In this document: positions 55,396 to 57,991 of the stretch, one piece after another
Layout: each line of letters starts with the position of its first letter
How positions within the stretch are numbered: the stretch's first letter is position 1
DNA from: a virus
Lineage: Duplodnaviria > Caudoviricetes
Reading direction: 5' to 3' (one strand)
Length of the DNA stretch: 64,000 nt
IMG/VR virus record: IMGVR_UViG_3300026116_000035
The notes under the pieces: model-generated
Seen by the model: only the letters and a program-made list of their open reading frames with translations
Database searches by the model: none
Told to the model about the DNA's origin: nothing
Translations under genes and position numbers: made by a program

Positions 55396-55755
55396 ATGGA
55401 TATTAAAGATTTAATTTTTTATATAAATAAATTTAAAGCCGAATGCGAAAAGCTTAAACCTATAAATGATGATAAAATTTCTATATTTCTTTGTGAGAAA
55501 GATTTTGAAGAATTTATAAAGTAAATTTTCCGGAAAAAGTATCAATCTATAATTACAGCCACAGGTTCATCTGGTGAATACATGGGAAAATTATTTATAA
55601 TAAATGGATATGATTATATAGTTCAACCTTATAATCCAGAAGATCCAAATGATTTTTTAAATGTAAATGAAGTTTTTTATTACATGAATGGACATTTTGG
55701 AGAAGACACTGTTTATGCTGAAAATGAAAGAATAATACAAAATATTATAGATTAA
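55396..55755 (+). pseudogene. First member of the C-terminal-tag gene array, interrupted by an in-frame TAA
   Basis: ATG 55396 gives MDIKDLIFYINKFK (homologous to the starts of 55833, 56217 and 57654). A single TAA at 55522-55524 interrupts the frame, which then continues to ...ENERIIQNIID* at 55755. Confidence 0.75.
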
Positions 55756-56214
55756 ATTTTATAAATGCCGAATTAAAATATGATTTCATAATTTTCGACA
55801 TAGACATCGTTCTTTCTTCTTTCATTATAAGAATGTTATTTGAGGATTTAAAATTTTATATAGAAAAATTTAAATTTGAGCAAGAGTCAAAAAACGAATA
55901 TAATATTGTCACTGAAATACGTGTAATATTAAATATTATAGATTTTAAAGAAATTTATAATAATATTTTAAATAATGATATGAGTGAAATATTATCACTT
56001 CATACTGAAAATGGTATTATAAAATATACGTTAGAAAATTATATTTTATGTTCTTATTATTTTGAAGATAAAAATTGTGAAAAATCTTCTAATAAAATAG
56101 CTCATATAATATTAAATATTAATAATTCTGATGTTAATTTTTCTTATACTACTTCTAAAAAAGAAATTATTTATTCTGCAAATGAAAGAATAATACAAAA
56201 TATTATAGATTAAA
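55722..56214 (+). repeat. 35-bp perfect direct repeat encoding the C-terminal tag
   Basis: AAATGAAAGAATAATACAAAATATTATAGATTAAA at 55722-55756 and 56180-56214. Degenerate copies end the other five genes. Confidence 0.9.
55833..56213 (+). CDS. Tag-array protein 2
   Basis: Begins MLFEDLKFYIEKFK and ends NERIIQNIID*. Confidence 0.75.
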   Translation: MLFEDLKFYIEKFKFEQESKNEYNIVTEIRVILNIIDFKEIYNNILNNDMSEILSLHTENGIIKYTLENYILCSYYFEDKNCEKSSNKIAHIILNINNSDVNFSYTTSKKEIIYSANERIIQNIID

Positions 56215-56216
56215 AT

Positions 56217-56603
56217 ATGCAATTTGAAGATTTAATATATTATGTGGAAAAATTTAAGTTTCAACAAAAACTAGAGCATGGATATTATATTGATAATAAT
56301 GTAGAAATTATATTAAATACTGCAGATTTTCAAGTAATTCTTGTTGATCAGTTAAATGAGACTGATAATGGATTTACTATTATCCATAATGATAATGGTA
56401 TTTTAAAATACGATTTACATAATTATACTATATGTTGTTACAGTGATAATATTAAAAATATTAATAAAGAAATTTTATTAAATAGTGCTTTGATTATTTT
56501 GAATATTAAATGTATATTAGATGAAAATTATAGTTATCCTATTCATGTAGAAGAAATTATTTATTCACCAAATGAAAGAATTATACAAAACATTATAGAG
56601 TAA
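56217..56603 (+). CDS. Tag-array protein 3 (full-length paralogue of protein 2)
   Basis: Begins MQFEDLIYYVEKFK, shares NGI(I/L)KY.L.NY..C.Y with protein 2, and ends NERIIQNIIE*. Confidence 0.75.
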   Translation: MQFEDLIYYVEKFKFQQKLEHGYYIDNNVEIILNTADFQVILVDQLNETDNGFTIIHNDNGILKYDLHNYTICCYSDNIKNINKEILLNSALIILNIKCILDENYSYPIHVEEIIYSPNERIIQNIIE

Positions 56604-56610
56604 ATATTAA

Positions 56611-56961
56611 ATGTTTAATTCCTGGATAAATATTTTAAATTTTTTAGAAAAAACAAATATTTTAGGTATTAATTTAAATGATTATTTTAATTACCATAAA
56701 GATAATTTTTTAAATGAAATAGATTTTGCTGAGAATATAATTCCCAGTGAGTTTTCTAATAAAATATTTGAAATTATTTTTGTAAATTCAAGTTCATTTA
56801 TATTAAATTTTTTCCTTATCAAAAATATAACAAATCGTTGGGATATGTATAATTTAATAATTAAAGCGTATTATAGATTTAAAATGAATTCTGATAAATT
56901 ATTTGAAGAACATTTAAATAATGTAATAAATGAAAATATAATTGAGAATATAATAAATTAA
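56611..56961 (+). CDS. Tag-array protein 4
   Basis: Unrelated helical body. Ends NENIIENIIN*. Confidence 0.7.
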   Translation: MFNSWINILNFLEKTNILGINLNDYFNYHKDNFLNEIDFAENIIPSEFSNKIFEIIFVNSSSFILNFFLIKNITNRWDMYNLIIKAYYRFKMNSDKLFEEHLNNVINENIIENIIN

Positions 56962-56962
56962 A

Positions 56963-57364
56963 ATGGAAATAAATATTAAAATAATTCTTATTGAAGTTTT
57001 AGAATTAATTGAAAAGCAAATTAAAAATTATGAATTTCTTTATTATTTTAATGTAAATTATTTCTCCTTACCAAATGAATTAAATAACTTATTAAACTCA
57101 ACATCTGATGAATATATGATTAAATATCATAATTCTATTGGTAGAGTAATTAGAAACTGTTATCTTTGTACTAAAGATGGTTCACTTCCTATATTGTATA
57201 ATTATTTTTTGGAAAATAATATATCTCATCCAGATGATATGAGTGATTTTATTTTGAGAATGTTTTGGCATATAAAACATAATAATCTATCTTACATTGA
57301 TGATATTGAAACATTAACTAATAAATTGTTCAAAGAAAATATAATTAAAAATATAATTGAATGA
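56963..57364 (+). CDS. Tag-array protein 5
   Basis: Unrelated body containing HPDDMSDFIL. Ends KENIIKNIIE*. Confidence 0.7.
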   Translation: MEINIKIILIEVLELIEKQIKNYEFLYYFNVNYFSLPNELNNLLNSTSDEYMIKYHNSIGRVIRNCYLCTKDGSLPILYNYFLENNISHPDDMSDFILRMFWHIKHNNLSYIDDIETLTNKLFKENIIKNIIE

Positions 57365-57651
57365 CTAATATAAGAAAATTAATTAAAGAATTAAATAATA
57401 AATATAATCATAATTTAAAATGTATAGACGAGATTAAGATTATAAAATCTGGTTACATTATAGTTAGATTATCATGCAAAAAATGTAATTGGAATAATTA
57501 TATTTATTTAGGTGATGTTGATTATACTTTTGATAAAGAATACAATTTTACCAAGATTAAAAAAATAGAATGTCCAGAATACATAGAATATGCTTATGAT
57601 TATGATATTTTAACTTGTGATGAGCAAATAATAAAAAATATAATAGAATAA
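57361..57651 (+). CDS. Tag-array protein 6 (CxxC-containing)
   Basis: Body contains LSCKKCNW. Ends DEQIIKNIIE*. Confidence 0.7.
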   Translation: MTNIRKLIKELNNKYNHNLKCIDEIKIIKSGYIIVRLSCKKCNWNNYIYLGDVDYTFDKEYNFTKIKKIECPEYIEYAYDYDILTCDEQIIKNIIE

Positions 57652-57653
57652 AT

Positions 57654-57938
57654 ATGATTAAATATGCTGATATTAAATATTATATAGATAAATATAAAAA
57701 TGAATGTTATAATAAAGGCCCAATTACATCAATTCATTTATCATCAGATATATATTTAAATTTATGTTCAGAATTAAATATTACAGATAGTTCTTATTTT
57801 ATTTATGATGAGTATAAATTTAAATTAATGTGGCAAATGTATGAAAATTACATAATATTTTTTAGTTCGTACCCTATGGGTATAGGGTACGATGTTTTAA
57901 GTGAAGAAGAAAGAATTATTAAAGATATAATAGAATAA
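57654..57938 (+). CDS. Tag-array protein 7
   Basis: Begins MIKYADIKYYIDKYK and ends EERIIKDIIE*. Confidence 0.7.
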   Translation: MIKYADIKYYIDKYKNECYNKGPITSIHLSSDIYLNLCSELNITDSSYFIYDEYKFKLMWQMYENYIIFFSSYPMGIGYDVLSEEERIIKDIIE

Positions 57939-57958
57939 TAATTAAATTTAATATTCTG

Positions 57959-57991
57959 AAACCTGTAAGTAGCAATATTTACAGGTTTTTT
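57959..57991 (+). terminator. Intrinsic terminator closing the tag array
   Basis: AAACCTGTAAGTA-GCAA-TATTTACAGGTTT followed by Ts (GNRA loop). Confidence 0.85.

Follow-up and report, generated by a model that had tools for sequence, protein, structure and literature searches.

The window analysed here is a 64,000-nt stretch of DNA that forms part of a 390-kb rhizosphere (soil) megaphage whose major capsid protein is 55% identical to that of its relative Bacillus phage G. Seven tandem ORFs occupy positions 55396–57938, and each closes with E.II..II[D/E/N] directly before its stop codon. The ORFs and their terminal nonapeptides had been described in a first-pass annotation of the sequence, and both were confirmed. 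The seven members, A to G, and the features that bracket them are listed below, together with their identities to three relatives, G001, G002, and G005.

54392–55288, + strand: conserved structural-module gene, 52–55% identical in G001, G002, and G005; left border of the insertion slot
55365–55384, + strand: upstream element ATTTCATAATTGTCGCATA, with a second copy before member B at 55783–55802
55396–55755, + strand: member A, class 1 body, N-terminal DLIFYINKFK, tail ERIIQNIID
55833–56213, + strand: member B, 126 aa, class 1 body, tail ERIIQNIID
56217–56603, + strand: member C, 128 aa, class 1 body, 47% identical to B, tail ERIIQNIIE
56611–56961, + strand: member D, 116 aa, class 2 body, 27–31% identical to E, tail ENIIENIIN
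56963–57364, + strand: member E, 133 aa, class 2 body with DUF6794, tail ENIIKNIIE
57361–57651, + strand: member F, 96 aa, class 3 body, HCCC zinc-ribbon microprotein, tail EQIIKNIIE
57654–57938, + strand: member G, 94 aa, short form of the class 1 body, tail ERIIKDIIE
57958–57989, + strand: terminator-like hairpin of 14 pairs followed by a T-run; closes the array
58037–58516, + strand: conserved HExxH protein, 49–60% identical in relatives; right border of the slot

On a single strand the ORFs fill the block almost without a break, gaps or overlaps measuring 1–9 nt, and the stop codon of E overlaps the start of F (ATGA). Member A is one gene broken by a single in-frame TAA (55522–55524), which leaves ORF pieces at 55396–55524 and 55582–55755. 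The 3' ends of A and B are perfectly identical over ~35 nt, and the element repeated upstream of both is a sign of tandem duplication of a gene with its leader. As a general promoter motif of the window the element was rejected. The earlier picture of an AT-rich block with its own terminator was borne out, the GC content of the array being 15–20% versus about 26–34% in the flanks and the hairpin and T-run lying just past member G.

The array is located in the head/neck module of the phage. The same slot in the relatives holds one or two small genes (G001 and G002) or homing endonucleases (G005), and the array reads as the occupant of an insertion hotspot in the structural module, turning over by duplication and decay. 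With the array as query, blastn found nothing in 50,697 phage records, an Rfam search likewise gave no match, and a search for related loci with the left-flank protein found no relatives.

Six-frame translation of the whole window yielded exactly seven matches to the motif, all directly 5' of a stop codon and all inside the array. A degenerate DNA pattern for the tag matched seven times in the window versus 0.00 times in 100 shuffles. The first-pass annotation had named shuffled Ile/Asn/Lys-rich ORF ends as the proper comparison, and the observed seven lie far above it: the array's own composition predicts ~6e-5 tags among seven ends, and 7 of 300,000 shuffled proteins ended in the motif. A chance origin of the seven tags is excluded.

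The bodies that carry the tag fall into three classes. Members A, B, C, and G are paralogs, and the N-terminal block D(L/I)x(F/Y)Y(I/V)xK(F/Y)K reported earlier was indeed found in four members. Three further bodies had been thought unrelated, and this stood for F, but D and E are probably related to each other, judging from their identity, giving three classes rather than four. Between these classes the hhalign probability was at most 0.7%, and no N-terminal peptide common to them was found. The possibility that all seven belong to one ordinary family was thus tested and not found. Member E matched Pfam family DUF6794 with 44.1 bits (cut-off 27.1; E 2.1e-11) over residues 39–103 and profile positions 20–81 of 83, leaving ~30 residues after the match, ~20 of which lie between the domain and the tail. 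Of 100 Atlas clusters that look like E by their features, 83 carry DUF6794, and these are mostly viral; the look-alike clusters of F and C were uninformative. A Pfam search with D gave no match of its own. In member F the ligands are H17, C39, C42, and C86, with a variable loop at 51–85 and a tail helix at 86–95 ending in LTCDEQIIKNIIE; the H, CxxC, and C are invariant in F and its relatives. Foldseek comparison of the F model with the PDB returned nothing at E≤0.001, the only likeness covering 33 residues of the NrdR zinc ribbon.

The first-pass annotation had anticipated that relatives would show variable bodies with a constant tag, and they did. The two complete relatives G001 and G002 encode 111 and 106 tagged ORFs, respectively, which amount to 7–8% of each genome, and metagenome contigs and loci supplied 391 more. 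These 608 ORFs were found with one common filter, and have the motif at the extreme C-terminus in every case. By BLAST, tagged proteins group into 105 clusters. Homologs of B, C, F, and G, with the same tails, are present on another contig. About 60% of the 608 proteins are HCCC zinc ribbons of one family, whose tail comes straight after a zinc ligand. In the relatives the tag is found on DUF4116 repeats (in G002, on 9 of the 11 ORFs with such repeats), on MORN-like repeats, on zinc ribbons of two types, and on a few membrane proteins; DUF6794 was searched for in the relatives and is not present there. Because the body classes of the window have no more than 0.7% hhalign probability of relation, because the tail lies outside DUF6794, and because the same tail is found on DUF4116, MORN-like, zinc-ribbon, and membrane bodies, comparison of these sequences shows that the tail is modular, a separable unit borne by unrelated bodies.

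Representatives of 50%-identity clusters gave 1,670 matches to a zinc-ribbon profile, the 143 short ones at the top all ending in the tag; a word-indexed search with the zinc-ribbon alignment, limited by its prefilter, gave 3. The zinc-ribbon type is restricted to viral and metagenomic DNA, and the tag was absent from 185,579 prokaryote species genomes. It was absent as well from Bacillus phage G, and from G005 although the capsid protein of the latter is 80% identical. The distribution of the tag is clade-wide, and all-or-none between close relatives. No Pfam family covers the tail or the zinc-ribbon type, and a literature search for the motif strings and for DUF6794 found no paper on either, which points to the tag being undescribed.

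The nonapeptide makes up the core of a C-terminal short linear motif 12–13 residues long, L-[ST]-x-[DN]-E-phi-[IM]-I-[KR]-[DEN]-I-I-x-COOH. Among 116 zinc-ribbon members the Ile columns of the tail are 87–97% identical (0.17–0.75 bits), whereas the best core columns of the body in the same proteins are 55–66% identical (1.5–2.1 bits). The four Ile come close to the zinc ligands in strictness of conservation, with Leu and Val hardly ever in their place. The Ile codons of the window tags are mixed (19 ATA and 9 ATT), and Ile is kept with mixed codons in tag-bearing genomes of 30–40% GC as well. Near-invariant Ile with mixed codons shows that selection acts on the peptide, in agreement with the first-pass reading of the window codons. 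The tail is helical and amphipathic in AF2 models, with a pLDDT of ~90 for the tail helix of the zinc-ribbon type; the model of E, built from two sequences, was all-helical at a pLDDT of 57, too weak to place the tail. The last 13 residues of the tagged proteins have a net charge of −2.7. This strongly acidic character argues against membrane insertion, and the tail was rejected as a membrane anchor.

We considered how much of this might arise without a function for the peptide. That the block is spurious, with chance frames in an AT-rich spacer or a region encoding RNA, has a negligible probability: a GC content of 15–20% does bias amino-acid composition, though it makes long ORFs rarer, and the close tiling of one strand, the Pfam match of E, the hundreds of F homologs, the homologs of four members with the same tails on another contig, and the empty Rfam search all speak against it. 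The homologs and domain matches effectively refute an artefact. The nucleotide sequence itself could have a share in the conservation and fixed register of the tag, to judge from the ends of tagged genes in two relatives. An ATGA overlap with the next start is found in 71 of the 111 tagged genes of G001 (64%) and 60 of the 106 of G002 (57%), the last codon of these tags is mostly NNA (GAA, AAA, CAA, or GTA), and AAG is enriched at position −5 (47–49% versus a background of 26–32%). The AAG/AGG/CGG-GAN found at −5/−4 in these two genomes is a Shine-Dalgarno-like site, placing AAGGA or GGGA ~9 nt before the next ATG. These features, and the 35-nt 3' end common to A and B, would be expected if the cassette end were kept as the translation-initiation region of the next gene, as a microhomology joint for duplication and body capture, or as both, with the peptide a by-product. 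We regard this as very improbable, since four positions are strictly Ile, using all three Ile codons, and not just any AT-rich codon, and since the motif reaches 5' to L-[ST]-x-D-E. The tag copies, sharing about 67–85% identity over 27–51 nt, are too degenerate for efficient homologous recombination. In the window itself, one of seven tags overlaps the next start, the tags lack a Shine-Dalgarno-like core, and the last member precedes a terminator, yet the peptide is kept in seven of seven. The earlier suggestion that tag DNA serves as a recombination joint is therefore at most secondary, for it leaves the strict Ile unexplained and the start and ribosome-binding-site overlap is seen in two relatives and not in the window.

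An ordinary paralog expansion deserves more weight, and we consider it possible, if on the unlikely side. One ancestral microprotein would have had a structural or dimerising last helix, its bodies would have diverged past the point of recognition or been swapped by recombination, and the tail would act in cis, by core packing or zinc-site capping, or in self-association. The dominance of one HCCC family with a zinc ligand abutting the tail fits such an origin, as do the rapid gene turnover in the arrays and the high pLDDT of the tail helix. The two phage G paralogs compared, gp32 and gp34, also end in a common helix, though one of another sequence (..ENDRYLxxxLxK), and conservation of the last helix is thus habitual in this group of phages. 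The ligand Cys stands two residues before the motif Glu, and with the confidence of the AF2 models this means that the helix may be part of the zinc-ribbon fold, its Ile face buried in cis, which would argue against docking to a partner. On the other side, DUF4116 and DUF6794 are independent Pfam families with the tail beyond their domain limits, and the body classes lack profile similarity. Conservation at the tail Ile far exceeds that of any core position of the body, unlike what intramolecular packing co-evolving with very different bodies would give, and an all-or-none distribution between close relatives is also not what an expansion of this kind predicts. A complex prediction of C, E, and G with F as partner (tag to tag), made without controls, scored 0.29 versus a mark of 0.32 and counts for neither side.

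The reading that we favor, and judge about evenly poised, is that the tag acts in trans as a modular docking or address peptide, a C-terminal helix recognized by one common receptor. The tail reads as an acidic amphipathic α-helix that has an N-cap, presents a face of four Ile, and lies at a constant distance from the free C-terminus; in one clade of phage G-like megaphages it is attached to many unrelated small modules. The receptor, encoded by the phage or the host, would bind the Ile face. Each array, that of the window included, would then be a set of fast-evolving proteins with a variable head and a constant tail, the heads being zinc ribbons with a hypervariable loop, helical or MORN-like repeats, or DUF6794. 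The first-pass annotation had likewise proposed diverse payloads that share a docking tag; its common tag on unrelated bodies held up, and for its docking partner no receptor was found. A search by phyletic pattern left 57 genes common to G001 and G002 and missing from G005, too many to single out one. One candidate with this pattern, a 453-aa AAA ATPase, belongs to a widespread family (718 matches), with none on the window's contig among the 120 matches listed, and it was dropped as unproven. ClpP does not discriminate, being present in all four genomes, tag-positive and tag-negative alike, nor does ClpX, which was found in tagless phage G and no other. It would also be unusual for one receptor to have more than 100 different clients.

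As to where docking would lead, recruitment to a protease or unfoldase, as an adaptor tether or degron, is quite unlikely in our estimate, and docking to another hub only a little less so. Prohead loading for ejection, proposed by analogy with the T4 capsid targeting sequence, appears distinctly unlikely; the few tagged proteins with transmembrane segments, and the location of most of the relatives' arrays outside structural modules, are against it. More broadly, we tentatively propose a megaphage address-tag system, whose probability we place a little short of even. In each genome a C-terminal helix of 7–13 residues ([IM]-I-K/R-D/E/N-I-I-x-COOH) would send >100 microproteins and repeat proteins, all diversified, to a single dedicated receptor, for which a virion core, a protease or unfoldase, and a compartment made by the phage are candidates. 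The system would be gained or lost whole between close relatives, and its hypervariable heads would bind host or competitor targets, making it a phage counterpart of F-box/PRANC-type adaptors or a scaled-up C-terminal analogue of the T4 sequence. Were the tag such an address, 7–8% of the coding capacity of 400-kb phages would be a single "variable head, constant tail" system, the receptor would explain a large share of megaphage dark matter, and a transplantable tag of 7–13 residues would be of practical use to load or recruit proteins. Even under a mundane reading, the unannotated zinc-ribbon type with its 1,670 profile matches is a clean marker of a megaphage lineage.

Several known systems invite comparison with the tag. 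The ssrA-like degrons recognized by ClpX have a non-polar C-terminal end of the LAA type; the megaphage tag ends I-I-[E/K/Q] with the net negative charge given above, and was rejected as a degron of this kind. In poxvirus ankyrin-repeat/PRANC (F-box-like) proteins and in the XB tail of SspB, a constant short C-terminal element tethers variable binding modules, present as large families of paralogs, to a common degradation machine. The analogy with the tag is one of logic only, with no relation of sequence or fold.

Phage G itself has a lineage-specific expansion of ~35 small zinc-ribbon paralogs, proposed to be transcription factors or DNA-binding proteins (Iyer et al. 2021, PMC7824862). These share with the tagged zinc ribbons the phage group, small CxxC paralogs in tandem arrays, and, in gp32 and gp34, a common C-terminal helix. 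They differ in having no II..II tail, and the phage G tail is not known on other domain families. When the 50,697 phage records were searched by tblastn with a tagged zinc-ribbon protein, nothing matched at E≤1, so no sequence homology with the phage G paralogs was seen.

Encapsulation peptides of bacterial microcompartments (BMCs) are amphipathic helices of ~15–20 aa, joined to the body by a poorly conserved linker, and are transplantable (PMC4594438). Like the tag, these peptides and the cargo-loading peptides of encapsulins are short terminal, often C-terminal, amphipathic helices on unrelated cargo; theirs bind a shell protein. The hydrophobic pairs at i, i+1, i+4, and i+5 of the tag presumably resemble those of the Pdu and Eut peptides. 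The BMC and encapsulin peptides, however, are defined by pattern, have a long linker, and come from loci that encode the shell, whereas the tag is nearly invariant in sequence, 12–13 aa long, and has a short or absent linker, following a zinc ligand in its main family. No BMC shell or encapsulin family was matched in Pfam by 20 window proteins, and none is in the gene table around the array; the one shell gene known here is that of the phage capsid.

The internal proteins of T-even phages (IPI, IPII, IPIII, and Alt) are diverse, are thought to act against host defence, come from hyperplastic loci, and have only the capsid targeting sequence in common (PMC3012670). That sequence is N-terminal, is cleaved by the prohead protease (after L/I-x-E), and is carried by a handful of proteins. 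The megaphage tag is C-terminal in all 608 tagged ORFs and is therefore not a targeting sequence of the T4 type by position; it is fixed to the stop codon, has another sequence, and is carried by >100 genes per genome, many of them outside structural modules. What the two systems share is a short terminal peptide as the sole common feature of diverse, fast-evolving small phage proteins, and the array in the window lies in a head/neck module.

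The first-pass annotation had described seven tandem open reading frames (ORFs) sharing a C-terminal tag directly before the stop codon, and the block at 55396-57991 on the + strand indeed holds them, each tail abutting its stop:

55396-55755, + strand, member A, class 1 body, tail ERIIQNIID
55833-56213, + strand, member B, class 1 body, tail ERIIQNIID
56217-56603, + strand, member C, class 1 body, tail ERIIQNIIE
56611-56961, + strand, member D, class 2 body, tail ENIIENIIN
56963-57364, + strand, member E, class 2 body, tail ENIIKNIIE
57361-57651, + strand, member F, class 3 body (HCCC zinc ribbon), tail EQIIKNIIE
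57654-57938, + strand, member G, class 1 body, tail ERIIKDIIE
57958-57989, terminator-like 14-pair hairpin and T-run closing the array

In a six-frame translation of the 64 kb, E.II..II[DEN] matched exactly seven times, always inside the array and always followed by a stop, and the degenerate DNA pattern of the tag matched seven times versus 0.00 in shuffles. The motif was above chance for Ile/Asn-rich ends: given the residue frequencies of the island itself (Ile 16.5%, Asn 12.5%), 6e-5 matches were expected in seven ends versus the seven seen, and 7 of 300,000 shuffled proteins ended in it. The mixed Ile codons of the tags (ATA 19, ATT 9) and the AT-rich character of the block (15-20% GC versus about 26-34% in the flanks) were likewise as annotated. 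Member A is a single gene interrupted by one in-frame TAA (55522-55524), and A and B share a perfect match of ~35 nt at their 3' ends plus a common leader element, which shows an array undergoing duplication and decay. The terminator scan also picked up a perfect palindrome with an 11-bp stem, TCGTACCCTAT GGGT ATAGGGTACGA, at 57867-57892 within the coding region of G.

The N-terminal block DLxFYIxKFK was common to A, B, C, and G, with B and C 47% identical. The remaining bodies had been called unrelated, and this held only between classes: D and E are probably related (27-31% identity), leaving three classes rather than four. Profile-profile comparisons of the three, with the tails taken off alignments A3 and A4, gave probabilities of 0.2%, 0.3%, and 0.7%, and did not find the seven to be one ordinary family. 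In member E, residues 39-103 matched Pfam DUF6794 (E 2.1e-11), with about 30 residues, the tail among them, beyond the domain limits; the majority of its Atlas look-alike clusters were viral DUF6794 proteins, and its AF2 model was all-helical and weak. In F, the ligands His17, Cys39, Cys42, and Cys86 were invariant or nearly so among 116 relatives. For F, an AF2 model built from 116 sequences (pLDDT 75.5) ran from a helix through three strands and a variable loop of low confidence to a tail helix at residues 86-95 with pLDDT about 90, and had no significant fold match in the PDB.

The window, which comes from a metagenome contig of 390,274 bp in a rhizosphere sample, codes for a large terminase, a portal, and a major head protein. 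The last (31211-32221) shares 55% identity with its counterpart in Bacillus phage G (L277), the closest cultured phage, which suggests that the host belongs to the Bacillota, for instance Lysinibacillus or Bacillus. The syntenic IMG/VR relatives G001, G002, and G005 (409-459 kb) have capsid proteins 80-81% identical. The array lies between conserved genes encoding a 298-aa structural-module protein (54392-55288) and an HExxH protein (58037-58516), and this slot is an insertion hotspot with the following contents:

Window, 55289-58036, the tag array
G001, 271831-272097, one small CxxC gene
G002, 283921-284526, two small CxxC genes
G005, 70862-73454, homing endonucleases, LAGLIDADG and GIY-YIG-like

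To the right of the array, a 960-aa structural protein (58520-61402) contains an intein, based on Hint/Intein_splicing Pfam matches and on tblastn matches in unrelated phages to its central part only.

The shared tail is real, and the finding is far larger than could be seen from the window. An IMG/VR scan with the tag-coding pattern singled out G001 and G002. A tail filter applied to whole genomes counted 111 tagged ORFs for G001, covering 31.4 kb or 6.8% of its sequence, and 106 for G002, covering 35.3 kb or 8.1%; G005 had neither a tagged ORF nor a homolog of any tagged protein, and phage G had zero tagged ORFs. The looser II..IIE-stop pattern matched 35 times in G001 and 28 times in G002, and its reversed control 0 times. 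Prokaryotes (185,579 species, one genome each) yielded four single matches, not one of which closed a tagged ORF. Metagenomes contributed at least 113 stretches with the pattern, many with several matches, and at least 391 tagged ORFs altogether; one contig (L227) held the same mix of class 1 and zinc-ribbon members as the window. A zinc-ribbon-type profile retrieved 1,670 proteins at E<=0.001 from 1.84 billion cluster representatives, and within the best 150 of these all 143 short proteins ended in the tag, with IIKNIIE as the terminal sequence of 70. None of the ten top matches scanned reached a Pfam cut-off. Tagged genes were AT-richer than their own genome in all three cases (window, G001, G002). 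The motif strings were not found in published papers, and the tag system is apparently undescribed so far.

A 495-aa protein of G001 (166904-168391) ends in ..TPEERIIKEIV, a tag-like tail minus the last residue on a much larger body. In tagless G005, expanded families of its own end in other fixed C-termini, ..DGKKYKLVELE (5 genes), ..W(D/N)SSSxxC (4), and ..GLxWL (4) (L241-L261; for example 247288-247611, 301401-303741, and 203590-223075); this genome also codes for 31 MORN-like repeat proteins and 19 with other repeats.

The consensus of 232 tails was L-[TS]-[C/x]-[DN]-E-phi-[IM]-I-[KR]-[DEN]-I-I-[E/K/Q]-COOH, with a net charge of -2.7 over the last 13 residues. By established helix rules, this would form a capping box ([ST]-x-x-E), a hydrophobic staple, and a helix of two to three turns with Ile at i, i+1, i+4, and i+5. 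Within the zinc-ribbon family, the tail Ile columns were 87-97% identical (0.17-0.75 bits), exceeded in conservation by the zinc ligands alone, and the best body core columns reached 55-66% at most. Leu was nearly excluded at positions -6, -3, and -2. The bodies carrying the tag were:

HCCC zinc ribbons, making up about 60% of the 608 tagged proteins
C4 ribbons, the second CxxC adjoining the tail
DUF4116 helical repeats, 9 of the 11 DUF4116 ORFs of G002 ending in the tag
MORN-like repeat protein, one
DUF6794
Proteins with transmembrane segments, about five

Tagged genes overlapped the next start by ATGA in 64% of cases in G001 and 57% in G002 (e.g., L093, L094, and L123), and their last codon was mostly NNA. 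K/R-D/E codons at -5/-4 (AAG/AGG/CGG-GAN) there create AAGGA or GGGA, a Shine-Dalgarno-like core ~9 nt ahead of the start that follows. In G001 and G002, though not in the window, the tag DNA thus also serves as a translation-initiation region, and this core together with the ATGA overlap may help fix the tag register and last residue. Such a role leaves the strictly kept Ile and the L-[ST]-x-D-E segment unexplained, as it does the window tags, where the core occurs in 0/7, overlap with the next start in 1/7, and a terminator follows the last member.

The tail is best explained as a C-terminal docking peptide acting in trans, with a single receptor shared by all its bearers, because a short invariant terminal helix is combined with unrelated hypervariable bodies, with more than 100 copies per genome, with all-or-none occurrence between close relatives, and with absence from cells. 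The main rival holds that the tail is a helix with a structural or self-associating role in a growing microprotein family and that recombination later spread it; a zinc ligand directly before the tail and the confident AF2 tail helix support this, but the fusion of the tail to DUF4116 and DUF6794 and the extreme conservation of its Ile argue against it.

Of the docking tag on diverse payloads proposed in the first-pass annotation, the modular tail on unrelated bodies stood, whereas the search for its receptor gave none: 57 genes are common to G001 and G002 and missing in G005, too many to single one out, and ClpP does not discriminate tag-positive from tag-negative genomes. As a lead only, a classical 453-aa AAA ATPase of G001 (179113-180474; L279 3114-4475; PF00004, E 2.5e-19) is a possible receptor or unfoldase. 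It has an N-terminal domain of about 240 aa with no type assigned, is 61% identical in G002, and has no counterpart in G005 or phage G; members of its family occur widely across large metagenome contigs, and none of the matches listed tied it to the window's genome. Two complete window genes alone, 51097-51999 (after a cysteine desulfurase gene) and 14917-15285, have homologs in G001/G002 and none in G005; neither has an assigned function.

[quoted passage not shown] Judged by position, sequence, and locus, the tag is not a capsid targeting sequence of this type and is probably not an encapsulation peptide. Phage G itself encodes zinc-ribbon paralogs, gp32 and gp34 (L277 5811-6194 and 6431-6787), with another shared end helix, ..KENDRYL(V/A)xxLxK, and small zinc ribbons ending in a constant helix may be a general feature of the phage G-like group.
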